Origin: a virus
DNA: 22,043 nt
Direction: 5' to 3' (one strand)
Virus record (IMG/VR): IMGVR_UViG_3300029822_000952
The notes beneath the pieces were generated by a model. That model did not search any database, was not told where the DNA came from, and saw nothing but the letters and a program-made list of their open reading frames with translations. Shown one piece after another: positions 4,187 to 22,043 of the stretch (position 1 is its first letter; the number at the start of each line of letters is the position of its first letter). The translations under genes and the position numbers were made by a program.

Positions 4187-4368
4187 TGGCCGAGCAGTCG
4201 GAACCCATTCACAGGTGCGAATGCGGGTCCGAGGAGGGGGTCACCGAGATGTTGGGCTGCCTGCCGCTCATGTCATGGTGCGCTCGCTGCGGCAAGGCAT
4301 ACGACCCATGGAACGGTTTCATACGGGTGCCAAGCCAGGACCGCCCGCTCATCGAGGAGGTGATCTGA
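4186..4368 (+). CDS. Zinc-finger microprotein, 60 aa
   Basis: HRCECG...WCARCG; GAGGTGA RBS; TGATG coupling. Confidence 0.7.
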   Translation: MAEQSEPIHRCECGSEEGVTEMLGCLPLMSWCARCGKAYDPWNGFIRVPSQDRPLIEEVI

Positions 4369-4674
4369 ATGGCGGCCATCGAGATCTCGTTCCGGCCGGA
4401 CATGCGGGAGGCCATCGTCGCCGGCCGCAAGTGCTGCACATCGCGGACCAGCTGCAAGGGGCGGCCGGGCGACACGTTCGCCATAGGCACTCGCCAGTAT
4501 CGATTGACTGCCGTCCGCCGCCACCCGCTTCACTACGTCGCCTCGGTGCTCTACAAAGATGAGGGCGTCGACAGCCCGGCGGAGTTCGGCGCCCTCTGGG
4601 CCGAGATATACCCAGTACGTGGATGCGACCCGTTCCAGCTCGTCTGGGTCCACCATTTCGAGGAGGTGGCCTGA
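4369..4674 (+). CDS. ASCH-domain protein (YqfB-like), 101 aa
   Basis: ISF...AIVAGRKCCTSR...GD...YKDEG...AEIYP matches the ASCH G-x-K-x-x-T-x-R motif and downstream E. Confidence 0.85.
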   Translation: MAAIEISFRPDMREAIVAGRKCCTSRTSCKGRPGDTFAIGTRQYRLTAVRRHPLHYVASVLYKDEGVDSPAEFGALWAEIYPVRGCDPFQLVWVHHFEEVA

Positions 4675-4835
4675 TGCACACGCCAGGATGCCGGACCTGT
4701 GCCCACCAAGGCCAGATGCCGGACCTGCCGCCCTGCTCCGTATGCAGCCGCACATACTCGCTGCAATGGGAGCCGACGGCCACGGCGGCCACGCTGATCG
4801 GCATCATCCAGGACGACCCGGCCGGGGTGATCTGA
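4674..4835 (+). CDS. Zinc-finger microprotein, 53 aa
   Basis: MHTPGCRTCAH...PPCSVCSR; GAGGAGGTG RBS; TGATG coupling. Confidence 0.65.
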   Translation: MHTPGCRTCAHQGQMPDLPPCSVCSRTYSLQWEPTATAATLIGIIQDDPAGVI

Positions 4836-5041
4836 TGCGCGACCTACCATCTTGGACCGCTGCCCTGGTCGAGGAAGTGGACATCGACGCCGACGCGCAT
4901 GCTCAGGTCGGGCATTGCGACCACGCAGCTTTCTCCTCCGCACATCGGGCGGTCTGCTACGCCCGGCACAGCGCGGCGGATACAGTCATCGTCTACGACC
5001 GCGACGGCAACATAATCTTCCCTGAGGAGGCGAGCCTGTGA
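4835..5041 (+). CDS. Hypothetical protein, 68 aa
   Basis: MRDLPSWTAALVEE...; GGGGTGA RBS; TGATG coupling. Confidence 0.6.
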   Translation: MRDLPSWTAALVEEVDIDADAHAQVGHCDHAAFSSAHRAVCYARHSAADTVIVYDRDGNIIFPEEASL

Positions 5042-5156: not shown

Positions 5157-5501
5157 GTGAAATGCCCTCTCAAGCCCGGCCTAACGTGCCGTGCGGGCCT
5201 CGCAGAGGTCGAGGGGACGCCCTGTCCCGGATGCCCGGCAGGACGCGCTAACGGCCGTCCTGCGGCCTCCGGCGACCTGCCCCTATCGCCCCCTCTAGCA
5301 GCCCTCCGGAGGCAGCTCCGGGACCGCCTCGCGGAGGTCGAAACGACCCCCCGGAGAGTGCCAAAAGTAAAGACTACGAGTAAAGACCTTGTAAAGAGCA
5401 AAAGTAAAGACTTTTTTTCGGCGTCTGGCTCCGAGGCGAGTAAAGACCTCGAAGTAAAGACCCGAGTAAAGACCCTTTACTTTGCCGGGGTGGCTCCATG
5501 A
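5157..5501 (+). CDS. Cys-rich protein (CPLKPG.C...CPGC), 114 aa; 3' half overlaps the iteron array
   Basis: GTG start after AGGTGAT; N-terminus paralogous to 13746-13922. Confidence 0.6.
   Translation: MKCPLKPGLTCRAGLAEVEGTPCPGCPAGRANGRPAASGDLPLSPPLAALRRQLRDRLAEVETTPRRVPKVKTTSKDLVKSKSKDFFSASGSEASKDLEVKTRVKTLYFAGVAP
5366..5481 (+). repeat. Iteron-like AGTAAAGAC array (putative replication origin)
   Basis: Exact copies at 5366, 5379, 5403, 5439, 5453, 5465; variant GTAAAGAG at 5391; inverted CTTTACT at 5475-5481; further copy at 5753 inside the next gene. Confidence 0.8.
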
Positions 5502-6697
5502 AGAACATCCGCCTCCACCCCACCCGCCGGAGGGTCTACGAACTGCTAGTAGACGGGGCTGCCCCGGGGGTCGGTCTTGCCCCTACCAGCATCATTGATC
5601 TGATGAACAAGGAAGGCAAGATAACACCGCAGCGGGTTTATCAGATTATCAGGGAGTTGAGGAAAGAAGGCTATGTCCGGCAGATAACGGGCTCCAGCAT
5701 GTACGTCCGTGGTCGTAAGGCCGCGATGCTGGACTATCTCATCAGCTCGGAGAGTAAAGACCTTGTAAACCCCTCTAACGGAGGGGGTCCGATTGCCCAT
5801 TATCCGAGTCAAGGGCATAATAATGGACCCGCAACCCCAATTTTTGAGACCTTCGTCCCGACCGCCGAGGCCCACGTTAACGGCCGTTACATCTACCCCG
5901 TCCTGCGCGTCGGGGAGTTATACGAGCCGTTCCGCGTCCGGGACGAGCAGGGCGAGATCTCCGAGTGCGTGGTATGGGACCCCGAGCCACGACAGCTCCG
6001 AGGCGTGACCTACTACACCGGCCGGGTGCCCATCCACGGCGGCATGACCATCCAGTATTGGCAAGGGGCCGTCGAGCAGTCCCTCCATATCTGGCCGACG
6101 CCGGTGACGCTGCTCCCGGGACGCGTCCACGAGGCCGAGGGCGACCTGGCAGCCAAGGCCCAGGACGCCGCCAACTGGCTCGGCCGCTTCGGCGGCTGGC
6201 GTCTGGGCGTGCCAAGATTTTCGAGCAACGAGGACGGCCCGGGCATCCATTACGCCTGCAATGATCCGGCCATAGTCGGCAATTTCCCCGAGGGATTCAA
6301 GCCCGACAACGGGGCCGGATACTGGCTGGACAGCACCCCGCCCCCCAGGTCCTACGAGACCACCGACGCTGAGCGCATGGAGGCCACCGTCAATTTTGCG
6401 GCCATCACCCGCGACCTCAAGCGGGGCCAGGCATCCCTCGGCCAGGGCGTCGCCGCGATGGAGGCCGCCATCGAGCGCCGCCAGCTGGAGGTGCTACAGC
6501 TCCGCTATGACGCCCTGGGCCAGCAGGCCGAGCTATGGCAGGCCATCGGCGACATGTCGGAGATACAGCTCCGCACCATCCACGCCCAGCACATCCAGGC
6601 GCACGTCGGCGGCCCAGGCCCTGGACCATCAGACCCCGCCACCGCCAGCACCACGGACAGTGACCCCGACGCCCGCAAGGGAGGCATGTACCAATGA
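5498..6697 (+). CDS. wHTH-domain protein, putative replication initiator, 399 aa
   Basis: N-terminal wHTH (ITPQRVYQIIRELRKEGYV), C-terminal coiled coil; directly downstream of the iterons and contains one. The Rep role is inferred from context only. Confidence 0.55.
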   Translation: MKNIRLHPTRRRVYELLVDGAAPGVGLAPTSIIDLMNKEGKITPQRVYQIIRELRKEGYVRQITGSSMYVRGRKAAMLDYLISSESKDLVNPSNGGGPIAHYPSQGHNNGPATPIFETFVPTAEAHVNGRYIYPVLRVGELYEPFRVRDEQGEISECVVWDPEPRQLRGVTYYTGRVPIHGGMTIQYWQGAVEQSLHIWPTPVTLLPGRVHEAEGDLAAKAQDAANWLGRFGGWRLGVPRFSSNEDGPGIHYACNDPAIVGNFPEGFKPDNGAGYWLDSTPPPRSYETTDAERMEATVNFAAITRDLKRGQASLGQGVAAMEAAIERRQLEVLQLRYDALGQQAELWQAIGDMSEIQLRTIHAQHIQAHVGGPGPGPSDPATASTTDSDPDARKGGMYQ

Positions 6698-7113
6698 GGA
6701 CAGACTACGACGACACCATAGCACAGATCGAGCAGGAGTACCGCAGAGGAGAGTACAGCGACCTGGACGCCGACCCCGAGGCCGAGGCCAGGGCCAGGTC
6801 CAGGCAGGAGCAGGAGGCGCTAGACAAGGACCGCAAGCGGGCGCGAGGATCCAGGAGGCTCGCAGAGGTCGCCTTCACCCCCAGTGGCCTGCCGGCCATC
6901 CGCAACGACGGCCGCACCCTGGCCGACGTGGAGCTGGAGCTGGCGGCCGGTCGGTACGGCTACCGCGCCGAGCCCTGGACCGGCCCTACCGGCCCAATGG
7001 CCGTCCCCGAGGTGGCCGACTCCCCGCAGCGGTTCCGCGCTCTCATCGACGCCTGGGAGCGCGACCCGGCCGCCTACCTGGCCGAGCTGCGCCGCAGGGG
7101 GCTGGTGCGATGA
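6694..7113 (+). CDS. Hypothetical protein, 139 aa
   Basis: GGGAGG RBS, ATGA coupling at both ends. Confidence 0.7.
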   Translation: MRTDYDDTIAQIEQEYRRGEYSDLDADPEAEARARSRQEQEALDKDRKRARGSRRLAEVAFTPSGLPAIRNDGRTLADVELELAAGRYGYRAEPWTGPTGPMAVPEVADSPQRFRALIDAWERDPAAYLAELRRRGLVR

Positions 7114-7280
7114 TCGAGCTGACGCGCCGACGCTATCGCTGCCCGGACCCATGCGTCTACAAATGCGTCATTGAGATGACATCCCAGTATGTCAAAAATC
7201 CCATCCAATGCGCCTACGGTCGTGGATGGATATACGACTGGATACTGCTCGATGAGCCGGCCGGGGGTGAGCGGCGATGA
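7110..7280 (+). CDS. Cys-rich microprotein, 56 aa (paralog of 13922-14089)
   Basis: MIELTRRRYRCPDPCVYKC...C...IYDWILLDEPAGGERR. Confidence 0.7.
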   Translation: MIELTRRRYRCPDPCVYKCVIEMTSQYVKNPIQCAYGRGWIYDWILLDEPAGGERR

Positions 7281-7431
7281 TCCAGCAGGGCGAGATCCCC
7301 GACTGCTACGGTATCGAGTGCTGCGATGAGTGCGCGATCGACTGCCCATTTTACATGGACTGCGAGGCCGACAGCCGAGAGGACGAGGATGACGACTGGG
7401 TTGGCGATGGCCTGGGGGGTGAGTGAGCATG
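7259..7431 (+). repeat. 173-bp exact direct repeat, copy 1
   Basis: Identical by eye to 14454-14626 (offset 7195). Confidence 0.95.
7277..7426 (+). CDS. Acidic Cys-rich microprotein, 49 aa, copy 1
   Basis: MIQQGEIPDCYGIECCDECAIDCPFYMDCEADSREDEDDDWVGDGLGGE; RBS and ATGA coupling. Confidence 0.7.
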   Translation: MIQQGEIPDCYGIECCDECAIDCPFYMDCEADSREDEDDDWVGDGLGGE

Positions 7432-8199
7432 TGCAACTACTGGAGCTGCATCCTCCACCGCGACGGCCGCGTGCTCCATGTGCGCGATGAGGACAGCCAC
7501 GAGGCGATCGTACAGCACTACCATCTCGACGACAACCGGCTGACCGACCGCGATTTCATCCGCATCGAGATCACGCCCGGCGACGCACTGAGCCGCGATC
7601 GGGCAGATTGGAGCTATAGGGTCGATGAGCCCCGGACCCTGCCGGACTGGTACGCCAACGACACCAGGCGCTGGGACGCCGTCGTATGGGCCGAGTGGGA
7701 GCGCGTGATGTCCGAGCAGATATGGGACACGCCCTGGTATGGCCGCGTGACGACCATGCGCGACCGTCTCGCCGCCCTCCGCCCCGGAGAGGCAGCGGTA
7801 TCTAGATCCGCCGTCCGCCCCGCGCTCGAAGAGCATCGCAAGCGCCTGATGGCGCTGGACGGCGAGCAACGCCAGTGGGCCATCTCGGAGGTGCGTTTTC
7901 ACAGTCCAGCAGAGTGGGCATCGGTCAGGGACTCGGTCTGGGACTCGGTCTGGGACTCGGTCTGGGACTCGGTCTGGGACTCGGTCTGGGACTCGGTCTG
8001 GGACTCGATCTGGGCATCGGTCAGGGCATCGGTCTGGGCATCGGTCTGGGCATCGGTCAGGGACTCGGTGGTCCATGAGGATGATGCCAACTACGGCCTG
8101 CCGCTGCTCGACATGCTGGCGGCCGGATGTGTGCTCTACGGTATCGATGACGATGGTGTCGCCCACGTGATCATGGTCGGCAAGGATGGAGGTGAGTGA
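7429..8199 (+). CDS. Tetrapeptide (W/R-D/A-S-V) repeat protein, 256 aa
   Basis: ATG after GGGGGTGAGTGAGC; MCNYWSCIL...DSHE N-terminus of a kind seen in phage repeat proteins; 13 tetrapeptide repeats. Confidence 0.75.
   Translation: MCNYWSCILHRDGRVLHVRDEDSHEAIVQHYHLDDNRLTDRDFIRIEITPGDALSRDRADWSYRVDEPRTLPDWYANDTRRWDAVVWAEWERVMSEQIWDTPWYGRVTTMRDRLAALRPGEAAVSRSAVRPALEEHRKRLMALDGEQRQWAISEVRFHSPAEWASVRDSVWDSVWDSVWDSVWDSVWDSVWDSIWASVRASVWASVWASVRDSVVHEDDANYGLPLLDMLAAGCVLYGIDDDGVAHVIMVGKDGGE
7915..8070 (+). repeat. 12-bp tandem repeat, 13 units (consensus TGGGACTCGGTC)
   Basis: WASV RDSV (WDSV)x5 WDSI WASV RASV WASV WASV RDSV. Confidence 0.95.
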
Positions 8200-8201
8200 G
8201 C

Positions 8202-8366
8202 ATGACCGGCACCCAATGCCACAAGTGCGGCCGCTGGATGACCGCCCAGCCGGAAACCGACATCATCCACGGAGAGCGGGTATGGTTTGGGACGACCTAT
8301 TATTGCGAGCGGTGCGACGACTCGATCTATGTAGACCGCCCAGCCCCGGCCGGGGGTGAGCAGTGA
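8202..8366 (+). CDS. Zinc-ribbon microprotein, 54 aa
   Basis: MTGTQCHKCGRW...YYCERCDD...GGEQ; GGAGGTGA RBS. Confidence 0.7.
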   Translation: MTGTQCHKCGRWMTAQPETDIIHGERVWFGTTYYCERCDDSIYVDRPAPAGGEQ

Positions 8367-8542
8367 TGGCTCGAGTCGTGCGATGCAAACACTGCCGCAA
8401 GGAGGTCGATGAGGCGACCGCCGCCAACTCCATCCAGTGCCTGGGAGCAGTGTTCTGCGACATGCAATGCTGGAGAAGATGGTCACGGGCCAGGGCACAG
8501 GCGGAACATGCCGAGGAAGAAGGAGATGATCCCCATGCCTGA
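8366..8542 (+). CDS. Zinc-finger microprotein (CxxC...FCxxxC, TRASH/FCS-like), 58 aa
   Basis: Hand translation MARVVRCKHCRKEV...AVFCDMQCWRRW; TGATG coupling. Confidence 0.65.
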   Translation: MARVVRCKHCRKEVDEATAANSIQCLGAVFCDMQCWRRWSRARAQAEHAEEEGDDPHA

Positions 8543-8957
8543 ATCGGACTGCGCCCTGACCGCTCTCGGCATGACGCTGGCCGACCGCATCGGGGGCGGC
8601 TGGTCTCAGCCCGAATATGAGACGTGCGACATATGCGGACGTCCGAACGAGGACGATGAGCATCACGTCACCAGCCGCCGGGGGAGGTCCGGCAACTGGT
8701 ACTATTGCAAGTCCTGCCTGGCCGGCGAGATCCTACGAGGGGAACCGTGCCCATACGTCCACATCAGCGAGTACAACGGATACGAGTATTGCAGCCATCC
8801 AGACGTTGGGGGCATGGGCTATCATCCATATTGTCGCCCGGATCCCCGCTCATCAGGCTTCCGCTGCCCCCTCGGGCTGTCGGGCAAGTGCTGGCAGCCA
8901 GTCAATAAGGCCGAGCCGGAGCGGGACGGCCGCCAAGCCACGCTGGAGGGATTCTAA
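8535..8957 (+). CDS. Cys-rich zinc-binding protein, 140 aa
   Basis: MPESDC...CDICG...YCKSCL...; start re-set from 8409 to ATG 8535 after AGGAGA. Confidence 0.65.
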   Translation: MPESDCALTALGMTLADRIGGGWSQPEYETCDICGRPNEDDEHHVTSRRGRSGNWYYCKSCLAGEILRGEPCPYVHISEYNGYEYCSHPDVGGMGYHPYCRPDPRSSGFRCPLGLSGKCWQPVNKAEPERDGRQATLEGF

Positions 8958-9136
8958 TGCAAAAACTAGGCCACATGTATTTTCGGTTAAAATCGAGTAC
9001 CTGTCCCGTCACTAGCCAGCGGCCGGAGCGGGAGCGGTGCGAGCAGTGCAAGCACATGATCGTCAGGGGCCCCGCCACCGGCGAGGGCCGCGCCATCCCT
9101 GAGCCAACCATGTTCTGCCGGCATCGGAGGGCCTAA
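8957..9136 (+). CDS. Cys-containing microprotein, 59 aa
   Basis: MQKLGHMYF...CPVT...CEQCKH...FCRHRRA; TAATG coupling, GGAGG RBS. Confidence 0.6.
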   Translation: MQKLGHMYFRLKSSTCPVTSQRPERERCEQCKHMIVRGPATGEGRAIPEPTMFCRHRRA

Positions 9137-9137
9137 G

Positions 9138-9308
9138 ATGACCGCCCCATGCACCTGGTGCGGCCGGCCCACCGAGCCGGGACAGCGCCGCTACGTGGAC
9201 CGATACGTCACCTGGTGGGTATGCGTCGACTGCTACCGGGCGACTCGCCGCGCCCCGGTGCCGGCCATGCCGCTCGGGAGCGCCCAGAACAAGGGGGGAT
9301 TGGCGTGA
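9138..9308 (+). CDS. Zinc-finger microprotein, 56 aa
   Basis: MTAPCTWCGR...WVCVDCYR; GGAGG RBS. Confidence 0.65.
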   Translation: MTAPCTWCGRPTEPGQRRYVDRYVTWWVCVDCYRATRRAPVPAMPLGSAQNKGGLA

Positions 9309-9484
9309 GCCGTCGGTGCTCTAACTGCTACTGGGTCGATTGGGGGGACGTCGAGGATCTCGACAACGACCCATGCGAGCATTGCCGCTATGATCCCGGA
9401 CGATACAACTGGCGGTCTAGGGACTCTCCCGTCACATGGATATACTACCGGGAGAGCCGCAGCGTACGGAGGCCAGCGCCATGA
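9305..9484 (+). CDS. Zinc-finger microprotein, 59 aa
   Basis: GTG start overlapping TGA; RRCSNCYW...PCEHCRY. Confidence 0.6.
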   Translation: MSRRCSNCYWVDWGDVEDLDNDPCEHCRYDPGRYNWRSRDSPVTWIYYRESRSVRRPAP

Positions 9485-9669
9485 ATTCCGAACCCGTTAC
9501 ATGGAGATGCAACCGGCCGGGCTGTCCGGATGCTTTGTATTCGGACGGCTGCCGGTGCACATGCCCCGACTGGCCGGGACGTAAGTGCCCCGCCAATCCT
9601 CGCCGAAAAGCGAATTGGGTGAAGGAGGGCGCGGACCTGGATGGCGAGAAGATGGGGGAATTTGCATGA
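9481..9669 (+). CDS. Cys-rich microprotein, 62 aa
   Basis: MNSEPVTWRCNRPGC...GCRCTCPDW...KCP; ATGA coupling at both ends. Confidence 0.6.
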   Translation: MNSEPVTWRCNRPGCPDALYSDGCRCTCPDWPGRKCPANPRRKANWVKEGADLDGEKMGEFA

Positions 9670-9986
9670 GCAAAAAACGAGCTAAGAAGCACGATATGTA
9701 TGGCTGCTTACAGCCTCCAAGGGGGCAACCCGTTTGGATGCACGACGATGAGGAAATCATAGGCGAGATAGGAGGTCCAAAGTTTGCCTTTGAGTTCTTC
9801 ATTCACGCCGACGGGTTCGGAGTTCTAAATCTTATTACACCCGGAGGGCAGAGAGTCGATAGAATCCTCATCAAAGAGGGGAGATTTGTTCAGGACGAAG
9901 ATTGGATTAGGTTAAATAACACCGCTCAAAAGTGTAACCCCTCACCGGACCGCCGGACTGCTGGGTTACAGTCGGAGGGATTGTAA
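9666..9986 (+). CDS. Hypothetical protein, 106 aa (AT-richer than its neighbours)
   Basis: ATGA overlap at 9666; MSKKRAKKHDMYG... Confidence 0.6.
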   Translation: MSKKRAKKHDMYGCLQPPRGQPVWMHDDEEIIGEIGGPKFAFEFFIHADGFGVLNLITPGGQRVDRILIKEGRFVQDEDWIRLNNTAQKCNPSPDRRTAGLQSEGL

Positions 9987-9996
9987 AGGAGATTAC

Positions 9997-10033
9997 ATAT
10001 ACACATAATGTATATATACGCATAATGTATATA
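9997..10033 (+). promoter_or_regulatory. Internal promoter with two tandem palindromic operators
   Basis: ATATAC(A/G)-CATAA-TGTATAT at 9997-10015 and 10014-10032; CATAATGTATATA direct repeat at 10004 and 10021; TATATATA at 10011-10018. Confidence 0.65.
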
Positions 10034-10055
10034 CTACAATTAGAGGTTGAGCAAG

Positions 10056-10355
10056 ATGGTGACCAAGAAGAAAATTGAGGAAATGTATGCGAGCAAGAAC
10101 GAGGGCCACGTCCCCGCAGCCGTGATGAGGCAGCTGGACAAATACGAGGAGGACGCCAAGGGCATCCACACGACGGACATGTCCATGCTGTTGCAGGACG
10201 CCCCTGCGGTGCGGTATCTGGAGGATTACGAGGTCGTCAGGGAGATCACCGATGGCATCCAGAGGGAGTACATGGACCTAGGACGCATCATGTACATGAG
10301 CGAGGGCCTGCTGCGCGATCTCAACGGCATGGGCGACCTGCCCGGCGGCATGTGA
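10056..10355 (+). CDS. Hypothetical protein, 99 aa (alternative TTG start 10047)
   Basis: GAGGTTGA RBS; first gene after the internal promoter. Confidence 0.65.
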   Translation: MVTKKKIEEMYASKNEGHVPAAVMRQLDKYEEDAKGIHTTDMSMLLQDAPAVRYLEDYEVVREITDGIQREYMDLGRIMYMSEGLLRDLNGMGDLPGGM

Positions 10356-10360
10356 TTCCG

Positions 10361-10444
10361 ATGAAGGCGACCATCGGCCTGGAGCTGTTCGGCGAGGTAC
10401 AGGGGAAGCTGATGGAGATAATAGAGCAGGGGCCATCGCAATGA
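10361..10444 (+). pseudogene. 27-aa ORF carrying a duplicate of the 5' end of the 10590 gene
   Basis: MKATIGLELFG then diverges (EVQGKLMEIIEQGPSQ). Confidence 0.5.
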
Positions 10445-10593
10445 GCATCACCATACACCGCTGCAAGCGATGCGGGCATGAGTGGGCGCAGCGCGGCGAG
10501 AGCAAGCCGAAGACATGCCCCAACCCCGCCTGCCGCTCCCCCTATTGGGACAAGGAGCGCACCAGGCCGCGTCCGGAGGCCCGGAAGGCATGA
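10441..10593 (+). CDS. Zinc-ribbon microprotein, 50 aa
   Basis: HRCKRCGHEW...KTCPNPACRSPYWD, a common archaeal/viral zinc-ribbon pattern; ATGA coupling at both ends. Confidence 0.75.
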   Translation: MSITIHRCKRCGHEWAQRGESKPKTCPNPACRSPYWDKERTRPRPEARKA

Positions 10594-11006
10594 AGGCGAC
10601 CATCGGCCTGGAGCTGTTCGGCGACAACAATCGGCAACGTCTTGAAGCTGAGAGGCGGATGATTAATGAGCTATCGCCCGGCTTAGGCGACCAAGTCATC
10701 GGCCAGGACCCCGACAGCATATGGATTGCTGAGATCATTGGCTACAACGACCGCTCTGAATACCAACGCCGGTACCTGCGAGGGCGACGGGATTATACCA
10801 AGGCCAACTCCAAAGGCTCTCGGGGCGTTTTTATGTGGTACATCCTGGAGGCCGGAAAGACCTACGAGGTAAGTTCCAGAGCATCATGGTCGCGCATGGA
10901 CCGATATTTCTGCATCGTGTCTCCAGAGGGCGACATCATAAGGATAAGCAAAGAGGAGGTGGACGCATGGCTGAGCCTGCTTCATGGAAGCGAGAACTGG
11001 GCATAG
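10590..11006 (+). CDS. Conserved hypothetical viral protein upstream of ibrAB, 138 aa
   Basis: DYTKANSKGSRGV...GKTYEV...RYFC motif; overlaps the IbrA start by 40 nt. Confidence 0.7.
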   Translation: MKATIGLELFGDNNRQRLEAERRMINELSPGLGDQVIGQDPDSIWIAEIIGYNDRSEYQRRYLRGRRDYTKANSKGSRGVFMWYILEAGKTYEVSSRASWSRMDRYFCIVSPEGDIIRISKEEVDAWLSLLHGSENWA

Positions 11007-12181
11007 ACGTTCTGACCGCCGCCAGGCAGCGCATCGCCTGGGTGTTCGACAATTTCCCACGCATATACGTCTCGTTCAGCGCTGGAAAGGACAGCACGGT
11101 CATGCTGCACCTGGTGGCCGAGGAGGCGCGTCGCCGCGGCAAGAAGATCGGCGTGCTTCTCGTCGATCTCGAAGGGCAGTACAAACTGACGATCGATCAC
11201 GGGCTGAGCATGTTCCGCGAGTACGAGGACGTGATCGAGCCGTTCTGGGTCTCGCTCCCTCTGCTGCTGCGCAATGCCGTGTCGCAGTACCAGCCCCGCT
11301 GGACGTGCTGGGACCCCGAGGCCCGCAAGGACTGGATACGCCAGCCTCCGGAGATCGCCATCACCGACGAGCGGTTCTTTCCGTTCTTCCGGCGCGGCAT
11401 GGAGTTCGAGGAGTTCGTTCCCGAGTTCGGCCACTGGTACGGGGGCGGCAAGCTGACCGCCTGCTTCGTGGGCATCCGCACCGACGAATCGCTCAACCGC
11501 TGGCGGACCATCGCCTCCTCGACCAAGCAGCGCATGGACGGTAAGGGCTACACCACCTGGATCGGAGAGGCGCTCTACAACGTCTATCCGATCTACGACT
11601 GGCGGACCGAGGACATCTGGCGCTATCACGGCAAATATCCCGACAGGCAGCATAACCAGCTCTACGACCGCATGCACCAGGCGGGGCTGACGGTGCATCA
11701 GATGCGCATCTGCCAGCCGTACGGTGACGACCAGCGCAAGGGACTATGGCTGTTTCACATCATCGAGCCGGAGACGTGGTCGCGCGTCGTCGCCCGCGTC
11801 AACGGCGCGAACCAGGGCGCGCTGTACGCTCAGGAGAACGGCAACATCCTGGGCATCAACAAGGTCACGCTGCCGCCCGGGCATACATGGCAGAGCTTCT
11901 CGATATTGCTTCTGCAATCGATGCCGGAGCGGACGGCGGACCATTACAAGGACAAGATCGCGGTGTTCCTGCACTGGTGGTCTCAGAGGGGCTACCCGGA
12001 CGGCATACCGGACGACGGGGAGATGAGCAAGGACGCCCCGAGCTGGAAGCGCATCTGTAAATCGTTGCTCCGCAACGACTACTGGTGCAAGGGGCTGTCG
12101 TTCACGCAGACAAGCTCAGCGGCATACGAGCGCTACAAGAAGATGATGAAGGTGAGGCGGAATAAATGGAACCTGATCTAG
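10967..12181 (+). CDS. ibrA: IbrA-like PAPS-reductase/PP-loop protein with DUF3440-like C-terminus, 404 aa
   Basis: YVSFSAGKDS PP-loop, GIRTDESLNR, YPIYDW, MRICQPYG, WKRICK.LL.ND motifs; GAGGAGGTG RBS before ATG 10967. Confidence 0.88.
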   Translation: MAEPASWKRELGIDVLTAARQRIAWVFDNFPRIYVSFSAGKDSTVMLHLVAEEARRRGKKIGVLLVDLEGQYKLTIDHGLSMFREYEDVIEPFWVSLPLLLRNAVSQYQPRWTCWDPEARKDWIRQPPEIAITDERFFPFFRRGMEFEEFVPEFGHWYGGGKLTACFVGIRTDESLNRWRTIASSTKQRMDGKGYTTWIGEALYNVYPIYDWRTEDIWRYHGKYPDRQHNQLYDRMHQAGLTVHQMRICQPYGDDQRKGLWLFHIIEPETWSRVVARVNGANQGALYAQENGNILGINKVTLPPGHTWQSFSILLLQSMPERTADHYKDKIAVFLHWWSQRGYPDGIPDDGEMSKDAPSWKRICKSLLRNDYWCKGLSFTQTSSAAYERYKKMMKVRRNKWNLI

Positions 12182-12687
12182 AATGGACGGCGAGGCATCC
12201 GGTGTCCCACGTTCGGTGGGTGCCGGCCGGGCAGGTGCACGCGAACGACTACAACCCCAATTCCGTGGCTCCGCCGGAGATGAGGCTGCTGCGCATCAGC
12301 ATCGAGGAGGACGGGTTCACGCAGCCCATCGTGGTGTGGCAGGTTGCCGATAACGAGTATGAGGTCGTGGACGGGTTCCACCGCCACCTCGTCGGCCGAG
12401 AGCTCGGAATGACCCATCTGCCCGTCGTGGTGGTCAACCAGGACCGCTCCGACCGAGGCGACAGGATCGCGTCGACCATCCGGCATAATCGGGCCAGGGG
12501 CAAGCACCAGGTCGGCGCCATGAGCGACATCGTGCAGGAACTGGCGCGACGCAACTGGAGCAACGAGAAGATAGGGCGGGAGCTCGGCATGGAGCCCGAC
12601 GAAGTCCTGCGGCTCAAGCAGATCTCCGGGCTGGCGGAACTGTTCGCCGATGAGGAGTTCAGCGAGGCATGGGATGTCGATGTGTGA
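12166..12687 (+). CDS. ibrB: IbrB-like ParB/Srx-domain protein, 173 aa
   Basis: ANDYNPN.V...SI.EDGFTQPIV...VVDGFHR...STIRHNRARG; overlaps the IbrA stop by 16 nt. Confidence 0.88.
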   Translation: MEPDLEWTARHPVSHVRWVPAGQVHANDYNPNSVAPPEMRLLRISIEEDGFTQPIVVWQVADNEYEVVDGFHRHLVGRELGMTHLPVVVVNQDRSDRGDRIASTIRHNRARGKHQVGAMSDIVQELARRNWSNEKIGRELGMEPDEVLRLKQISGLAELFADEEFSEAWDVDV

Positions 12688-12717
12688 ACATAATGACCGC
12701 ATCCAAGAGGTGACGCC

Positions 12718-12993
12718 ATGAGAGCCGCCCTATACGCCAGGGTCTCGACCGACGACCACGACCAGAACCCCGAGACCCAGCTCCGCGTGCTGCGGAAGAT
12801 GGCCGAGGCCCGAGGATACACGATCTTCCGGGAGTACATCGATGAAGGATGGTCGGGCGCTGACCCAGGCCGCCCTGGCATGATAAAGCTCCGCAAGGAC
12901 GCCAAGGCCCACCGCTTCGACGTGCTGCTGGCCCAGGACACCATGGATCGTCTGGTCAGGATGCGGGCCGCCGTCGAGGGGAGGAGAGCATGA
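12718..12993 (+). pseudogene. Truncated serine recombinase (resolvase catalytic domain only), 91 aa
   Basis: LYARVST catalytic Ser, SG...RPG, DRLVR, then ends without helix E or a DNA-binding domain. Confidence 0.75.
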
Positions 12994-13307
12994 TCGCCGC
13001 CGAAGTGCTCCAGGCAGAATGGCTCGACCGCCCGGTCAGGCAGATGGCGGCCATCGCTCACATCGGGGAGATGCAGGAGCGGGTGGAACGTGGCCACGCC
13101 GACATGGGCGAGACCACGGCGCTCCGTATCCGCGAGACGCTGGGGGCCAGTAACAACGTCTACAAATTGCTCCAGATACTCCAGGAGGACGGCCTCATAC
13201 GCCAGGGTCCAGTGGTCAGGGTCAGATGGCGCTATTCCGCGCCGTGCTACGAGCTGACTCCGCTTGGCTGGGAGCTGTACCATTCTATCAGGAGGCTCGT
13301 GCAATGA
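12990..13307 (+). CDS. Winged-helix protein, 105 aa
   Basis: TTALRIRETLGASNNVYKLLQILQEDGLI...YELTPLG. Confidence 0.7.
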   Translation: MIAAEVLQAEWLDRPVRQMAAIAHIGEMQERVERGHADMGETTALRIRETLGASNNVYKLLQILQEDGLIRQGPVVRVRWRYSAPCYELTPLGWELYHSIRRLVQ

Positions 13308-13549
13308 CCACGCTCGACAGTTTCCTATCAGAGGCCGACAAGCGTCCGAACTACCTGGCCGAGCAGAAGCGACGCAAGGCCGAGATCGAGGCGAGACGCC
13401 CCTCGCAGATCCCGGAGGACCTGCTGCTCCTGGAGGACGAGCGGCAGTTCTGCGACGCGTATCGGGCGAGGTACCGAGTCAATGCGCGAGGCATCGAGAT
13501 CATGCAGTGGTTCCATGCCGAAAAGCTCCGCAAGAGGAGGCGGTGCTGA
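13304..13549 (+). CDS. Hypothetical protein, 81 aa
   Basis: GGAGG RBS, ATGA coupling; MTTLDSFLSE... Confidence 0.6.
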   Translation: MTTLDSFLSEADKRPNYLAEQKRRKAEIEARRPSQIPEDLLLLEDERQFCDAYRARYRVNARGIEIMQWFHAEKLRKRRRC

Positions 13550-13749
13550 TGGACCCGAGCACCCGCGGACTGCTGGGACACATCACCCGCTGGAATCATC
13601 ACCGGCGTCCATACATCCGGCGCTATCCGGCGAACTGCATCTGGCGCGGATGGCTGCCGCCGATGGCTATCGACGAGCTGAGGCAGTTCGGCAACTCCGT
13701 CAGGCCCCTGGGCGGCGGCGTGTACATACTGAACGAGGTGATCGAGTGA
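13549..13749 (+). CDS. Hypothetical protein, 66 aa
   Basis: GAGGAGG RBS, TGATG coupling; MDPSTRGLLGH... Confidence 0.55.
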   Translation: MDPSTRGLLGHITRWNHHRRPYIRRYPANCIWRGWLPPMAIDELRQFGNSVRPLGGGVYILNEVIE

Positions 13750-13922
13750 GCTGCCCTCTGAAGCCCGGCATCTCGTGCGCCAGGACGTCCGAGATGGTCG
13801 AGTCGACTCCTTGCCCAGGCTGCACCGCCGGAGACGCTAACGGCCGTTCTAGACGCCCTGAGCCTGTGCGTGCCACACTCATCGCCACCGTCCGAGTGGT
13901 AGATCCCATGGGGGTGCGGTGA
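13746..13922 (+). CDS. Cys-rich microprotein, 58 aa (paralog of the 5157 N-terminus)
   Basis: VSCPLKPGISC...PCPGCTAGDANGR; GAGGTGA RBS, GTGA overlap. Confidence 0.65.
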   Translation: MSCPLKPGISCARTSEMVESTPCPGCTAGDANGRSRRPEPVRATLIATVRVVDPMGVR

Positions 13923-14089
13923 TGGTCGAGCTGACGCGCCGCCGCTATCGCTGCCCGGACTCCTGCGGCCTGGATTGCACCATCGAGGTCAACAGCACCA
14001 GGGTGATCGATGACTGGGAGTGCCCCGGCAACCGTGGGCACATCTACGACTGGATACTGCTCGATGAGCAAGATGGAGGTGAGCAGTGA
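13922..14089 (+). CDS. Cys-rich microprotein, 55 aa (paralog of 7110-7280)
   Basis: MVELTRRRYRCPDSCGLDC...C...IYDWILLDEQDGGEQ. Confidence 0.7.
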   Translation: MVELTRRRYRCPDSCGLDCTIEVNSTRVIDDWECPGNRGHIYDWILLDEQDGGEQ

Positions 14090-14475
14090 TGGCCCGTAAG
14101 AGAACTTGTTCCTGGTGCGGTCCAGGCGACCAATCCGGACCCAATAACGGGTTCTACTACCTGTGCGAGGAATGCTACGACGAATGGGACTATTACATGC
14201 ACATAGGGAGGCTGGCCGTCAAGGAGTTGAAGCTGACCCACCCAGGCGCGTACCGGAGCCGGATGGAGGACATGATCAGGTCCCATTCCGACTTGTTCAG
14301 GCGGTTCGGCAATCTCAAGACTATCCAGACAGCGCTAGATAAGGGCGATATGGGCCCGATGGTGGAAGCCCTCCCGAAGGAGTTCGCAATGAAGCATTAC
14401 CCGGAGCATTTCGACGAGGCGGGGAACTGTAAATCGAACGTCTTGGCCCGTAAGGCCGGGGGTGAGCGGCGATGA
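14089..14475 (+). CDS. Zinc-finger protein, 128 aa
   Basis: CSWCG...YLCEECY; ends in GGERR. Confidence 0.7.
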   Translation: MARKRTCSWCGPGDQSGPNNGFYYLCEECYDEWDYYMHIGRLAVKELKLTHPGAYRSRMEDMIRSHSDLFRRFGNLKTIQTALDKGDMGPMVEALPKEFAMKHYPEHFDEAGNCKSNVLARKAGGERR

Positions 14476-14626
14476 TCCAGCAGGGCGAGATCCCCGACTG
14501 CTACGGTATCGAGTGCTGCGATGAGTGCGCGATCGACTGCCCATTTTACATGGACTGCGAGGCCGACAGCCGAGAGGACGAGGATGACGACTGGGTTGGC
14601 GATGGCCTGGGGGGTGAGTGAGCATG
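14454..14626 (+). repeat. 173-bp exact direct repeat, copy 2
   Basis: Identical by eye to 7259-7431. Confidence 0.95.
14472..14621 (+). CDS. Acidic Cys-rich microprotein, 49 aa, copy 2
   Basis: Identical to 7277-7426. Confidence 0.7.
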   Translation: MIQQGEIPDCYGIECCDECAIDCPFYMDCEADSREDEDDDWVGDGLGGE

Positions 14627-14794
14627 GCCTGGGGATACCCCAAATTCGAGATCACCGCGACGGTGGACGGCGAGGAGGTGGGCTCGGTCAGGACGGGCAT
14701 AACCAACGCCATGTGCTACATCCACGACTGGATGGCCCGCTACTCTACCGAGACCCTGACCATCGTCATAGTGCCGGGAGGTGAGCGGCGATGA
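14624..14794 (+). CDS. Hypothetical microprotein, 56 aa
   Basis: Hand translation MAWGYPKFEITATVDGEEVG...PGGERR; cassette-type junctions at both ends. Confidence 0.65.
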   Translation: MAWGYPKFEITATVDGEEVGSVRTGITNAMCYIHDWMARYSTETLTIVIVPGGERR

Positions 14795-14997
14795 ACGGCC
14801 TGCACGGCACGCCCCAGCCCCATCACGTCATGGCCGGAGGCCAGGTCAGATGCGAGAGGTGCGGCCGGCCGACCCGCGAGATCGCCAAGGCGCTCATCGA
14901 CGCGGCCGCCAATGCCGAGGGCATCGACATGCCCCCGCTGTACCGCGAGTGCGAGGACGGCAACCAGTACGAGGCCGATGGCCTGGGAGGTGAGTGA
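14791..14997 (+). CDS. Cys-containing microprotein, 68 aa
   Basis: VRCERCGRP; GGAGGTGA RBS; ends in GLGGE. Confidence 0.65.
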   Translation: MNGLHGTPQPHHVMAGGQVRCERCGRPTREIAKALIDAAANAEGIDMPPLYRECEDGNQYEADGLGGE

Positions 14998-14999
14998 GC

Positions 15000-15050
15000 A
15001 TGGCCAGACCAGCCGTATTGTGTGCAAATGATGGAGGTGAACGGCAATAA
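15000..15050 (+). CDS. 16-aa mini-ORF between two cassette junctions
   Basis: MARPAVLCANDGGERQ; strong RBS upstream. Confidence 0.4.
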   Translation: MARPAVLCANDGGERQ

Positions 15051-15289
15051 CTCGCAAGATCTCCGCCGACGTCCGGATCTGCAACGGCTCCCGGCCCGGC
15101 ACCGTCCGCGTGGTGGTCGAGCTCCCGGAGGACCTCGGCGGCATGCTCGACCAACTCGCTATCATTGAGAAGGTGCCCAAGAAGGTCACGATCCGCAAGG
15201 CCCTGGAGGACCTGCGTGAGGAGATCCGAGAGCACGGCATCGGCATCCTGTTCGAGGATGGCGAGCAGGGAGAGCCAGGCGCTCTCTAA
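15047..15289 (+). CDS. Ribbon-helix-helix (CopG-like) regulator with apparent ATA start, 80 aa
   Basis: VRVVVELPEDLGGMLDQLAIIEKVPKKVTIRKALEDL; GGAGGTGA at 15033-15040; in-frame TGA at 15038 excludes an upstream ATG. Confidence 0.6.
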   Translation: MTRKISADVRICNGSRPGTVRVVVELPEDLGGMLDQLAIIEKVPKKVTIRKALEDLREEIREHGIGILFEDGEQGEPGAL

Positions 15290-15320: not shown

Positions 15321-15377
15321 ACATATGCTGGTATACATCGCGTGGTTGTAATCTTATAGTTGTCCGATACTCAACGG

Positions 15378-16007
15378 ATGTCTCCCAAGAGCATCTCCAC
15401 CGACAAGAGGGGCGCGACCCCGATCGCCGCCATCGCCGCCGTCATTGCGACGATCGCGCTATCTTCCGCCCTCCTACTCTTGGCCGCCGCTCCCGCGAGC
15501 GCGGCCGACGTGAGCTCTACGTCAATGAGCGCCGACGCGACCGCATACACCGTAGCCCCGGGCGGCGAGGTCATCATCAAGATCTCCGACATGCCCGACA
15601 ATACTGGAATCGCCCAGGTGAACTTCGAGGACGCTGACGGCTTCAACGCCGACGAATGGTTCACCGCGACCTCCACCGAGAAGGAACTCGCGGCCACTAT
15701 CAAGATCGTCGCCGACGAGGAGACTCCGCTCGGCGATTACATCGTTGAGATCGTCCCGGCCGGCAACGCCTCCCAGGCCATCGAGGTCGAGCTGACCGTG
15801 CAGCACTCCGTCGCCCAGGTCCTGAGCGGCAACGCCATGTACCTCGGCGCCGGCATCGGCCTGATCGTGGTCGCCGGGCTCATGGGCCAGGCCATCCGCA
15901 ACAAGAAGGCCAAGCGCATCACCAAGCCCCTGAGCACCCTGATGATCGTCGCCGGCGTGGCCAGCCTCGCGTGGGTCGCCTACCAGACCGTTGTCGTGCT
16001 CATCTGA
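15378..16007 (+). CDS. Membrane-anchored putative virion protein: signal peptide, Ig-like beta domain, two C-terminal TM helices, about 209 aa (alternative TTG start 15360)
   Basis: Hydrophobic N-terminus ending PASAA; YTVAPGGEV...ATIKIV...LGDYIVEIV; TM-RNKKAKR-TM. Confidence 0.75.
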   Translation: MSPKSISTDKRGATPIAAIAAVIATIALSSALLLLAAAPASAADVSSTSMSADATAYTVAPGGEVIIKISDMPDNTGIAQVNFEDADGFNADEWFTATSTEKELAATIKIVADEETPLGDYIVEIVPAGNASQAIEVELTVQHSVAQVLSGNAMYLGAGIGLIVVAGLMGQAIRNKKAKRITKPLSTLMIVAGVASLAWVAYQTVVVLI

Positions 16008-16016
16008 GGTGATCTC

Positions 16017-18344
16017 GTGAACACCGTCGCACGCAAAACCCTCTCGATCATGATGGTCATAGGCCTCGTGGTCGGGGGGCTCCCCCTATTTTTTGCCGCC
16101 ACCGACAACGCCGAGGCAGCCGTAGGAGTCTGGGAGAAGCGCACGTCAGCCATGTCCGTCATGCACTCCAACGGCAAGCTCACGGTCGATGTGTCAACGT
16201 TCGAGGATGAGGGCAACAAGCCTATCCAGGGCTATACCCTGCTGCTCAAATGGGACCAATGCCGCAAGGACCTCAACCCACTGAGCGGATTCTGGCGCAC
16301 CATACGCTCGCCGCAAACGGCCACCATCACCACTGACGCCAAGGGCGAGGCCGAGTACAAGTTCAGTCTGGGTAACGGAGTCTGGACCGAGAATCTATGG
16401 ATCTACGGCTCCAGCGAGGGGTGGCAGATCATCGAGTATTTCCTGGGGAATATTGCCTCCACCAACATCCATCTCGACATCCAGACCCAGGCATCGATGG
16501 CCACGCAGCACGCTATCCAGCGCGCCGACACGCTAGGACTCATCCATGACTGGTACGAATTGGCACCCGCGGCGTTATCTCCGAGCGAAGGTGGAGCACC
16601 AATCAAACATATAGACGTCTGGGCCAGCCAACAGTATGTTGGTGCTACTCAGATTACTATGAACTGGCTAATGGAAACGAATGGCCATCAATCAAATGTT
16701 GTGACCGCTGTACCAGGCACATCATCCGCTGGCTCGATAAAGTATTCCAATATCAAAAATTATTATGTGGATGAGTTGAATTTATTACCTGCAGCGAAGG
16801 GCGGGAAAACTCAATATTATGCATTCGAAGACTGGATGTGTTATGGGGAGGTATGGTTCTCAGTATATAAGCCGTCAACTGGAGTAACAGATATGCGGAA
16901 TTACCGCACAACGCTCTATGCCGACGATGGGAAAAATAACATTACCGTTTGCGTTCTTGAACCACATGCCCCTCAGACCAAGATCCCGATGGTTAAGTAT
17001 GACCTAGCCCCGGGAATGTATAATTTCATTGTTAAGATCGAGAATCTCTATACGGGGGAGACCTATGCCGCCTCTGCTTACATCAGTTTATACACCGGCT
17101 CTAGTGCGGACCTCGTCCTAGGCGACCTCGATGAGCTCGATGTTTTGCCAACTATAGATGTGTGGTCCGATACAAGTACTGCTGTCACCATAAATCTAAA
17201 CGGACGATGGGGAGAATGGCAGACATCCGGATATTCTACGACCATTACCGATCAGGATCTCGTCCCAGTGGCCGCGCATATCAGGGGCATCTATCCGCTC
17301 GTAATCAGCAATCCGAGATGGGACAAGACACCCATCGCCGAAAATCTGAATGGTTTTAAATTTGATGTATACAACATACACCCAGAGCAGACCATAGAGA
17401 CGGTAAACCTCGCCCTTACTACAGATAACGGAACTCAGGTATGGGCCACGACTGTCGGTTCACAAGCCTATCCTACATGGACTGACGCATCACAGTTCAC
17501 GACGGTCCACCTAACTCACATATCCATGCCGGCCGAACCACGCAAATTGTACACCCTGATAATATCGTGCGGAGGTGCTGTCACCGAGATCCCCGTGGTG
17601 TTCTACCCGGCCGAGATGGATCCTGATGTGATCTACGAGCCTAAGAAGGACCTCGATGAAATCATCAAGGACTACGGAACGGTCAACGCTGCCGCCCTCA
17701 AGGCCTATCACGACTGGGCCGTGAGCATGCAGCCCAGGATCAAGGTCATAAAGGCCGACGTGCAGAACTACACCAAGCTCTTCGAGCAGCGCCTCGCCGT
17801 GGACAACCTGGCCCTCTCCGACGCCGCCGCCACGCGTGGCCTGGAGCTGATCACCGCGCTCAAGGAGATCTGCAAGGGCGATGGCTCGGACACCAGTATC
17901 GGCGAGCTCACATCCCATGCCCAGGGCATCTGGTCATCCTACCAGGCCGCGCTGCTGTACCGGGAGACCGCTATATCCTACGAGGCCGGCCAGACCGCGT
18001 TCGGCAATTCGACCGCCCTTGATGCCTGGTACCAGGACCTCGTGAGCAAGCGGATCACGGTCGGCCTGCAGGAGCAAAAACAGGGAGATGACCCCAACAG
18101 CGTCGCTGTCTGGGTCGGCGTCGCCGTCGCCCTGGTGGTCGGCGGCCTGGTGATGTACCTCTGCTGGAAATACATCATCCCGCCGCTCAAGCGCGTCATG
18201 CCCAAGGGCCGCAGCCCCCGCCTCAGGACGATCCGCGCCGTGACGCCGGTGGTCGTGACCATCGTGCTCGCCGTTATCATCGCCCTGGTGGCATTCCTCG
18301 CCACCTGGAACATAGCCCTGAGCATCGAGGCCGCTCTGAGGTAA
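16017..18344 (+). CDS. Large membrane-anchored surface protein, putative spike/receptor-binding or fusion protein, 775 aa
   Basis: GAGGTGA RBS; signal peptide ending AEA; beta-rich ectodomain, then helical/coiled-coil stalk, then two TM helices with a basic loop. The spike role is inferred from architecture and gene order. Confidence 0.65.
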   Translation: MNTVARKTLSIMMVIGLVVGGLPLFFAATDNAEAAVGVWEKRTSAMSVMHSNGKLTVDVSTFEDEGNKPIQGYTLLLKWDQCRKDLNPLSGFWRTIRSPQTATITTDAKGEAEYKFSLGNGVWTENLWIYGSSEGWQIIEYFLGNIASTNIHLDIQTQASMATQHAIQRADTLGLIHDWYELAPAALSPSEGGAPIKHIDVWASQQYVGATQITMNWLMETNGHQSNVVTAVPGTSSAGSIKYSNIKNYYVDELNLLPAAKGGKTQYYAFEDWMCYGEVWFSVYKPSTGVTDMRNYRTTLYADDGKNNITVCVLEPHAPQTKIPMVKYDLAPGMYNFIVKIENLYTGETYAASAYISLYTGSSADLVLGDLDELDVLPTIDVWSDTSTAVTINLNGRWGEWQTSGYSTTITDQDLVPVAAHIRGIYPLVISNPRWDKTPIAENLNGFKFDVYNIHPEQTIETVNLALTTDNGTQVWATTVGSQAYPTWTDASQFTTVHLTHISMPAEPRKLYTLIISCGGAVTEIPVVFYPAEMDPDVIYEPKKDLDEIIKDYGTVNAAALKAYHDWAVSMQPRIKVIKADVQNYTKLFEQRLAVDNLALSDAAATRGLELITALKEICKGDGSDTSIGELTSHAQGIWSSYQAALLYRETAISYEAGQTAFGNSTALDAWYQDLVSKRITVGLQEQKQGDDPNSVAVWVGVAVALVVGGLVMYLCWKYIIPPLKRVMPKGRSPRLRTIRAVTPVVVTIVLAVIIALVAFLATWNIALSIEAALR

Positions 18345-18345
18345 C

Positions 18346-21945: not shown

Positions 21946-22043
21946 ATGCCCCCCTTAATAGGCAAACAAACAAGGGCTTCCGGTGCCCCTCCCGACCCTC
22001 CGGACGGCCCTTTCCTTTCCCCCTCCCCGGCGATTCTTCAACC

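Follow-up and report, generated by a model that had tools for sequence, protein, structure and literature searches.

Short conserved boundary ('linker') sequences in the modular evolution of lambdoid phages were reportedly discussed by Susskind and Botstein. Whether viral mosaicism arises by recombination at conserved boundary sequences or by random illegitimate joins filtered by selection is a long-running question. Conserved gene-boundary sequences have been proposed to target homologous recombination, with modules exchanged intact (PMC3974807). For T4-type phages, two further reports describe promoter early stem-loop (PeSL) cassettes, with an ORFan lying between two regulatory cassettes as against a single cassette in a relative, and with mini-circles detected (Arbiol et al. 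2010, PMC2839356; Comeau et al. 2014, PMC4122927). A third system is the start-associated sequence (SAS) of cluster K mycobacteriophages, a virus-specific 13-bp repeat (consensus GGGATAGGAGCCC) located 3-7 bp before starts, confined to the non-structural genome half, almost entirely lacking in the host and read as a translation signal (Pope et al. 2011, PMC3203893). Proviruses with pleolipovirus-type VP4-like fusogens have been reported in Methanomassiliicoccales (PMC10919331). The present analysis concerns IMG/VR record IMGVR_UViG_3300029822_000952, a viral stretch of 22,043 nt examined as one strand (hereafter the window; coordinates count from its first letter). The plus strand of the window is a single long chain of ~45 mostly tiny, tightly packed genes, many of which encode Cys-rich proteins of 46-140 aa. 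A few short linkers are reused at the junctions between these genes, and it is proposed with moderate confidence that the genes may be shuffled by short-homology recombination at these translational-coupling linkers, with selection acting as a co-filter. Relatives were found via the winged-helix protein and a 209-aa membrane protein and were then fetched as contigs. The resulting comparison set consisted of 29 non-redundant related contigs or loci (i.e. L001 and others; 210 kb, of which 13 are main loci), obtained from various samples with more than one assembler.

The linkers are 15-30 nt in length and have a constant make-up, i.e. the last codons of the upstream gene, a Shine-Dalgarno (SD) sequence (GGAGGTGA), a fixed spacer and an overlapping stop/start. 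The families were designated R1 (GGTGAGCGSCGATGA), R2 (GGTGAGCAGTGATG), R3 (GGTGAGTGAGCATG) and S (GAGGTGATCTGA(A)TG), with S being found at 4186, 4369 and 4835 and as a variant at 4674 (see Table 1 for individual linkers and genes). Three left halves were observed, namely A (GGCCGGGGGTGAG) at 7259, 8348 and 14454, B (GATGGAGGTGA(G/A)) at 8185, 14072 and 15030, and C (GATGGCCTGGG(G/A)GGTGAG) at 7406, 14601 and 14977. These were found in mixed combinations with the right halves CGGCGATGA, CAGTGATG and TGAGCATG. Sites 14454 and 14601 belong to the second copy of an exact 173-bp repeat and are not independent. Unrelated microproteins end in GGE, GGEQ, GGERR or GGERQ; the reused linkers explain these common GGE(RR/Q) tails, which is useful for annotation. 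A preliminary description of this DNA, made from the letters alone, had listed these motifs, their mixed half combinations, the protein tails and a second family linking the genes at 4046-4835, and all were recovered as listed. The same description had placed the ends of the 173-bp duplication in junctions, and the repeat does begin in one linker and end at the ATG of the next gene. Tail A holds an 8-nt palindrome (CCGGCCGG), and the linkers on both sides of the microgene g14 (7251-7276 and 7405-7431) are imperfect direct repeats (GGCCGGGGGTGAG / GGCCTGGGGGGTGAG).

The probability of such sharing arising by chance was assessed for 44 junctions aligned on the start codon, from which the 173-bp duplicates had been removed, using column-preserving shuffles (n=2000). 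Six pairs of junctions shared ≥14 nt in register as compared to 0.007 in the shuffles, and eight pairs shared ≥12 nt as compared to 0.07. None of the 2000 shuffles reached the observed pair counts and the same outcome was obtained within the GGTGA-bearing subset. As a host control, 199 coupled SD junctions from 240 kb of two Methanomassiliicoccales genomes were analysed, with the same junction pipeline being applied to the window. Junction pairs sharing ≥12 nt amounted to 2/19,701 for the host as compared to 6/666 for the window, while the corresponding values for GGTGA-bearing junction pairs were 0/190 and 6/78. Both comparisons agree with the preliminary description, which had held that junction sharing goes beyond a simple ribosome-binding site (RBS), and identity beyond the SD is far above that of host operon junctions. 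A search of 200 host-order genomes (~340 Mb) with the 15-nt R1 pattern produced eight matches (0 for the reversed control), at least two of which lie in related proviruses. As host-order junctions and genomes show so few, the linkers are a property of the virus family and not of host operons. Their sharing exceeds chance and is particular to this virus family, the predicted host of which is specified to the level of order only. Two simpler candidates were rejected, i.e. a pure SD + ATGA constraint, ruled out by the shuffle test and the host junction control, and a general host operon style, ruled out by the R1 counts in host-order genomes and the same control. The 3' end of the 16S rRNA in two host-order genomes is GGAUCACCUCCU, and therefore the S family (4046-4835, GAGGTGATCTGATG) complements the whole anti-SD and ends in a TGATG overlap. 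Pairing with rRNA does not account for the R1, R2 and R3 spacers (i.e. GCGGCG, GCAGTG and GTGAGC).

Most junction families in the 13 main loci are merely orthologous, having one context each, and different genes are joined by S, R1 and R3 (and R2) alone. Across all 29 loci, R1 was found 26 times in 19 distinct contexts (16 upstream and 13 downstream genes), R3 18 times in seven contexts and S 12 times in 10 contexts, and all occurrences of these three linkers in the relatives were at junctions and on the coding strand. For the g4/g5 S linker, the conserved g4 tail precedes in 10 relatives and is followed by at least eight different genes. The left and right halves of the linkers assort independently. 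Genes of the g13 family carry either tail A (PAGGERR) or tail B' (QEGGERR / QDGGEQ), with g13 orthologs ending in either tail A or QEGGERR. Tail A of g16 is followed by R2 in the window, by R1 in L034, L038 and L042, and by a third spacer (GCGCCATGA) in L037. Similarly, the linker ahead of g8 is S in the window and L005 and R1-like in L022. An array of tandem paralogs that have diverged while their linkers were conserved was considered and ruled out, since the linkers precede clearly unrelated genes (i.e. a resolvase, the 256-aa g15 and the Cys-free g38).

The 49-aa microgene g14 provides the most extensive series of contexts. The exact g14 protein is recorded in at least 22 contigs and its DNA is 145-150/150 identical (97-100%) in all contexts read. 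Its neighbours comprise at least seven upstream and four downstream genes (g15, g38, a g16 homolog and one other) in at least 10 combinations; where homologous, these neighbours are merely ~65-87% identical, and the others are unrelated. A 27-nt leader before g14 (GAGCCGGCCGGGGGTGAGCGGCGATGA) sits on at least five unrelated upstream genes, and elsewhere identity starts 22, 17 or 15 nt ahead of the ATGA. Within the leader, the nine tail bases (GAGCCGGCC) are invariant and differences are restricted to G/A in the SD and G/C in the spacer. As the nine bases do not vary, the comparison of sequences indicates that the shared leaders represent identity by descent at the DNA level and not convergent selection on a peptide tail. 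A tail motif maintained at the protein level was ruled out, the tails matching at the nucleotide level. That g14 has become so widespread while staying nearly uniform suggests that it is under strong selection.

Relatives differ by the presence of whole genes that have the same linker on both sides. L001 and L035 contain an additional zinc-ribbon gene of ~52-54 aa (gX) between g13 and g14, with an R1 copy at either end (17/18 nt), as compared to a single R1 at this position in the window, L006, L036, L040 and L041. The g14-R3-g15-R3-g16 arrangement of the window is represented by g14-R3-g16 in L034, L037, L038 and L042, which derive from four samples. Likewise, g4-S-g5-g6-g7-S-g8 in the window corresponds to g4-S-g8 in L005; here one S linker joins g4 to g8, so g5-g7 is a presence/absence block between S linkers. 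L001 contains a single g14 and is without the 7.2 kb that lies between the two 173-bp copies in the window.

Homology breakpoints were examined across the comparison set. L001 is 96-100% identical to the window over most of its length, and all breaks in homology between the two are at gene junctions (1872/2758, 4192/5147, 7280 and 7264/14459), with the break at 4192 being just past the g4/g5 S linker. Block ends were counted over all pairs with ≥88% identity and scored as junctional when within 20 nt of a start codon. This applied to 43 of the 95 distinct internal ends as compared to 8.6 expected (P about 2e-20) and to 13/14 of the ends in the window. Since genes in the other loci were called automatically and with some errors, the value of 43 is probably an underestimate. 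Alignments end inside linkers. Block ends were present at 10/11 shared-linker junctions as compared to 13/25 other junctions (Fisher P = 0.027). Identity to L001 steps sharply at junctions, from 88% to 100% and then to 98.5%, and blocks of 99.2-99.9% identity are shared with L002 and L021, genomes that are otherwise 64-81% identical. Breakpoints in the relatives are found at junctions rather than falling randomly inside genes. The preliminary description had claimed gain and loss of whole genes at junctions, which is seen in the relatives (i.e. gX, g15 and g5-g7), although causation by the linkers is not separable from selection. Its further claim, that switching always takes place within the GGTGAG core, is not supported: crossovers are not confined to this core and some block ends are intragenic. 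A five-gene block (9138-10390) is 99.9% identical to L021 (17303-18555) and 99.2% identical to L002 (12850-13695), and the L021 copy is located after the ATPase gene, i.e. at a different genomic position.

Table 1. Linkers, linked microgenes and other features of the window
Feature	Position	Strand	Remarks
S linker GGTGATCTGATG, g4/g5	4177-4188	+	g4 4046-4186; g5 4186-4368
S-type linker GGTGATCTGAATG, g5/g6	4359-4371	+	g6 4369-4674
S linker GGTGATCTGATG, g7/g8	4826-4837	+	g7 4674-4835; g8 4835-5041
g13, 56-aa Cys-rich gene	7110-7280	+	paralog of g35 (13922-14089); tail A (EPAGGERR)
173-bp exact repeat	7259-7431 = 14454-14626	+	linker A/R1, g14, linker C/R3 to next ATG
R1 linker GGTGAGCGGCGATGA, g13/g14	7266-7280	+	
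g14 copy 1, 49-aa acidic Cys-rich microgene	7277-7426	+	
R3 linker GGGTGAGTGAGCATG, g14/g15	7417-7431	+	
g15, 256 aa	7429-8199	+	contains 12-nt tandem repeat; between two R3 linkers
R3 linker, g15/g16	8190-8204	+	left half B, GATGGAGGTGAG
g16, 54-aa zinc-ribbon-like gene	8202-8366	+	tail A
R2 linker GGTGAGCAGTGATG, g16/g17	8355-8368	+	
g35, paralog of g13	13922-14089	+	tail B (QDGGEQ)
R2 linker, g35/g36	14078-14091	+	
g36, 128 aa	14089-14475	+	ends AGGERR; R2 on one side, R1 on the other
g14 copy 2	14472-14621	+	inside right 173-bp copy
R1 linker, g38/g39	14780-14794	+	g38 14624-14794; g39 14791-14997
30-nt C/R3 linker copy after g39	14976-15005	+	29/30 identical to 14600-14629
Decayed R1-type linker GATGGAGGTGAACGGCAATAA	15030-15050	+	ATA in place of the ATG with which the RHH-like gene begins in relatives
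Tyrosine integrase	2764-3807	+	Pfam Phage_integrase, 32 bits
Winged-helix protein gene	5498-6697	+	preceded by iteron array
35-nt exact repeat from ATG	10361-10395 and 10590-10624	+	flanks 229-nt unit with 50-aa gene 10441-10593
PAPS-reductase/DUF3440 and ParB_N pair	10967-12687	+	
Serine-resolvase fragment	12718-12993	+	cut at ~residue 81 as compared to 235-aa L004 homolog
Module of membrane proteins, 775-aa protein and P-loop ATPase	15360-21945	+	
PAPS, 3'-phosphoadenosine-5'-phosphosulfate; RHH, ribbon-helix-helix.

A mechanism can be proposed from these comparisons. The accessory operons consist of tiny genes that are coupled in translation and connected through a few linkers used again and again. 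As the same linkers join unrelated genes within a genome and across co-circulating relatives, they form local patches of identical DNA. If two linkers recombined through this short homology, whether by general recombination, annealing or template switching, the result would be deletion or duplication of the intervening genes when out of register inside one genome and their insertion or exchange when occurring between genomes. In every product the SD, its spacing and the overlap of stop and start would be preserved, so that genes downstream would still be expressed, and recombination would also spread and homogenise the linkers themselves. Under this proposal, linker identity would cause the crossovers rather than being what selection lets through, and no site-specific enzyme would be needed.

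An alternative, which is possible but doubtful, is that random illegitimate recombination is followed by selection (i.e. a Hendrix-type process) and that the linkers are passengers that function as a virus-specific translation or re-initiation signal. Several points weigh against the recombination proposal and some of these suit the alternative directly. Selection alone would also put surviving breakpoints at gene boundaries and, as selection against gene-disrupting joins enriches for junction breakpoints, comparative data cannot prove causation by the linkers. The linkers could be kept for translation, as proposed for SAS, with recombination as a by-product: they are conserved where the core protein is just ~45-55% identical, which fits functional constraint, and SAS are likewise virus-specific, RBS-positioned, found before unrelated genes and partly unexplained by rRNA pairing (PMC3203893). 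The use of 15-27 nt of identity as a recombination substrate in these hosts is an assumption. Moreover, 13 of the junctions with block ends carry no shared linker, and breakpoints are also found within genes or at their 5' ends. A joint in mid-g39 (L001/L002) is intragenic, the resolvase fragment is cut inside the gene (~81 of 235 aa), and homology begins 6-20 codons inside the homologs of g8, g18 and g20. The 35-nt repeat at 10361/10590, an insertion footprint, lies in the coding start of a gene and not in an RBS linker. Lastly, the adjacency of g36 to g14 is seen in the window contig only, and therefore the double-g14 arrangement is likewise seen only there. Passenger linkers are, however, difficult to reconcile with the finding of one gene with different linkers on either side, indicating that linkers do not simply travel with it, or with the four separate presence/absence cases flanked by two copies of the same linker. 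The identity of GAGCCGGCC before g14 on five unrelated upstream genes argues for recent shared descent of this DNA, and the enrichment of shared-linker junctions among block ends also speaks against selection as the sole cause.

Dedicated cassette exchange, in which the linkers are sites for an enzyme (the tyrosine integrase, a serine resolvase or a nuclease at CCGGCCGG) and genes move integron-like through circles, is very improbable. The left boundary of the g14 unit does recur at the same position in at least five contexts, but homology boundaries are nested at -27, -22, -17 and -15 from the ATGA, so there is no single cleavage point, and several linker types behave alike. Variation is concentrated directly downstream of the integrase-proximal g4, yet the integrase is of a generic Xer-like/phage type: it scored 19.6 bits on the integron-integrase model TIGR02249 (cut-off 265), and its best match, a generic XerA-like model, was also far below cut-off. 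Resolvase genes are found in the arrays of relatives (full-length in L004 and after R1 in L003), whereas the window resolvase is truncated. A circle could be formed by the 7.2-kb block plus one g14 copy. Folding of five 51-nt junction segments as single-stranded DNA detected no attC-like fold, with z between -1.6 and +1.7 as compared to shuffles, and the linkers have no hairpin or inverted repeat. The integron-like array of the preliminary description is hence not borne out, either by the linkers or by the integrase. A related scheme, in which the linkers would be sites of (semi-)dedicated gene capture by an archaeal virus, with an enzyme acting for example at CCGGCCGG and g14/7.2-kb circles reinserting at any linker, is quite improbable; if true, it would represent a functional counterpart of the integron built on translational-coupling signals.

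Finally, the pattern might stem solely from duplication or an assembly artefact, i.e. a 173-bp duplicate plus old paralogs or a 7.2-kb circle that the assembler merged into the virus. Of the listed junction pairs, two are the 173-bp repeat itself, and the window has a further paralog pair (g10/g34) in addition to g13/g35, but the excess of shared junctions persists without the duplicates. The 173-bp repeat is longer than common assembly k-mers, the g36-to-g14 joint is confined to one contig as already stated, and it is conceivable that the 7.2-kb block is a circle in its own right. In contrast, linkers of 15-27 nt fall below the size of assembly k-mers and so cannot cause misjoins, and the same linkers recur across 29 independent contigs that come from various samples and were built by different assemblers. 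An explanation by duplication or artefact alone is very unlikely.

Additional observations were made on the genes and linkers of the array. The C/R3 copies at 14600-14629 and 14976-15005 place g38-g39 between 30-nt direct repeats. The linker before the RHH-like gene (15047-15289) resembles R1 with three G-to-A changes; an ATA is present at 15047 in the window and L001, an ATG (MTR(R)ISA...) is present in four relatives, and the next canonical in-frame start is a GTG at 15110. The tandem repeat of g15 (7891-8094) consists of ~14-17 units of 12 nt (GGGACTCGGTCT / GGGCATCGGTCT) and encodes a WDSV/WASV-type peptide repeat. The 229-nt unit between the 35-nt repeats holds a dead-end open reading frame of 27 aa as well as the zinc-ribbon gene of 50 aa (10441-10593). 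Translational coupling of the resolvase fragment (12718-12993) to the next gene is still intact. A Pfam scan of the microproteins gave nothing above cut-off, and an Rfam scan of the window detected no family.

The host order and genome form were examined using the relatives. L004 is embedded in host DNA and is 100% identical to a contig of Methanomassiliicoccales RumEn M1, while L022 is a provirus inside a 391-kb host contig. Two related proviruses with an R1 linker, L025 (G001:C1:92367-95381) and L027 (G063:C31:2483-5497), are located in two host-order genomes. RumEn M1 (G001) carries both L004 and L025 and therefore at least two elements of this virus family. On the basis of these comparisons, the window is predicted to be a ~22-kb pleolipovirus-like element of Methanomassiliicoccales, an order of methanogens of the gut and digesters. 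The ATPase of the window had only weak P-loop matches and a 26% match to the ATP-binding protein of Aeropyrum globular virus, and a PDB sequence search with the 775-aa spike-like protein found no match among solved structures. Searches of viral and genome contig collections with single proteins and profiles found no relatives, and those of metagenome contigs gave five short contigs only; an exact search of the viral contig collection with a 22-nt linker gave no match.

The window (1-60 and 21980-22043), L001 (1-60) and L020 break at one G/C-rich inverted repeat (GGGGGAGGGGTTGAA... / ...TTCAACCCCTCCCCC), and L001 begins with an Illumina adapter. A linear genome with terminal repeats was considered in view of this adapter and of the common break. 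However, both the integrated L022 and L005 are uninterrupted from the ATPase to the pilin-like gene, i.e. across the shared break point. As these two are continuous there, a circular or integrated genome is more likely, probably a circle whose assembly was interrupted at the common point. The iteron words before the winged-helix gene (5340-5495; ~80 nt upstream in L001 and L002) vary between relatives, being AGTAAAGAC in the window, GTCAAGGGC in L001 and L002, and of a GTAAAC type in L009 (compared using L009 and L012). The winged-helix protein diverges together with the iterons, which suggests co-variation of initiator and iteron specificity.

When set against described elements, the window matches the pleolipovirus-like layout (i.e. 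a small membrane protein, a spike-like protein of ~775-800 aa, membrane proteins, a P-loop ATPase and an integrase) and shares its predicted host order with the pleolipovirus-like proviruses of Methanomassiliicoccales. Integrons resemble the present arrays in consisting of small promoterless genes with upstream expression signals that are gained or lost unitwise at defined boundaries. This unitwise gain and loss (seen for gX, g15, g5-g7 and the 7.2-kb block) also belongs to other models and so is not diagnostic of an integron, and the boundaries of the virus arrays differ in being nested and in coupling the units by translation. SAS and the virus linkers are alike in occupying the RBS position before genes of different families and in being partly unexplained by 16S pairing. 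They differ in sequence, and neither a stop/start overlap nor shared C-terminal tails are described for SAS; the extended SAS (ESAS) has inverted repeats, which are absent from the virus linkers.

A closer resemblance is to the lambdoid boundary sequences, which are described as conserved gene-boundary stretches where mosaic homology starts or stops. The virus linkers differ from these in being nucleotide-defined, reused dozens of times and placed between single microgenes within one operon. Shuffling through PeSL is the closest mechanism described, and PeSL share further features with the virus linkers: in hyperplastic regions, small ORFan genes that are non-essential alternate with repeats of short conserved expression signals, a gene lies between two cassettes in one phage as against one cassette in a close relative, the shuffled genes remain expressed and no dedicated recombinase is invoked. 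PeSL are ~100 bp in length and transcriptional (a sigma-70 early promoter plus a terminator stem-loop), whereas the virus linkers, at 15-30 nt, are five to ten times shorter and translational, overlapping coding sequence, holding the SD and stop/start, and having no stem-loop. Also, the virus host is an archaeon, and PeSL mini-circles have been shown physically while the virus linkers are known from sequence. The rapid turnover of small-gene content in these viruses calls for caution in annotation, and the family, with its nucleotide-defined linkers that are rare in host genomes, its g14 and its presence/absence genes, is an unusually clean natural test bed for the origin of mosaicism. Linker-type shuffling is known from bacteriophages and would here be extended to a group of archaeal viruses and to purely translational linkers. 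Modular shuffling of the PeSL or boundary-sequence type is a better-fitting known model for these arrays than the integron.

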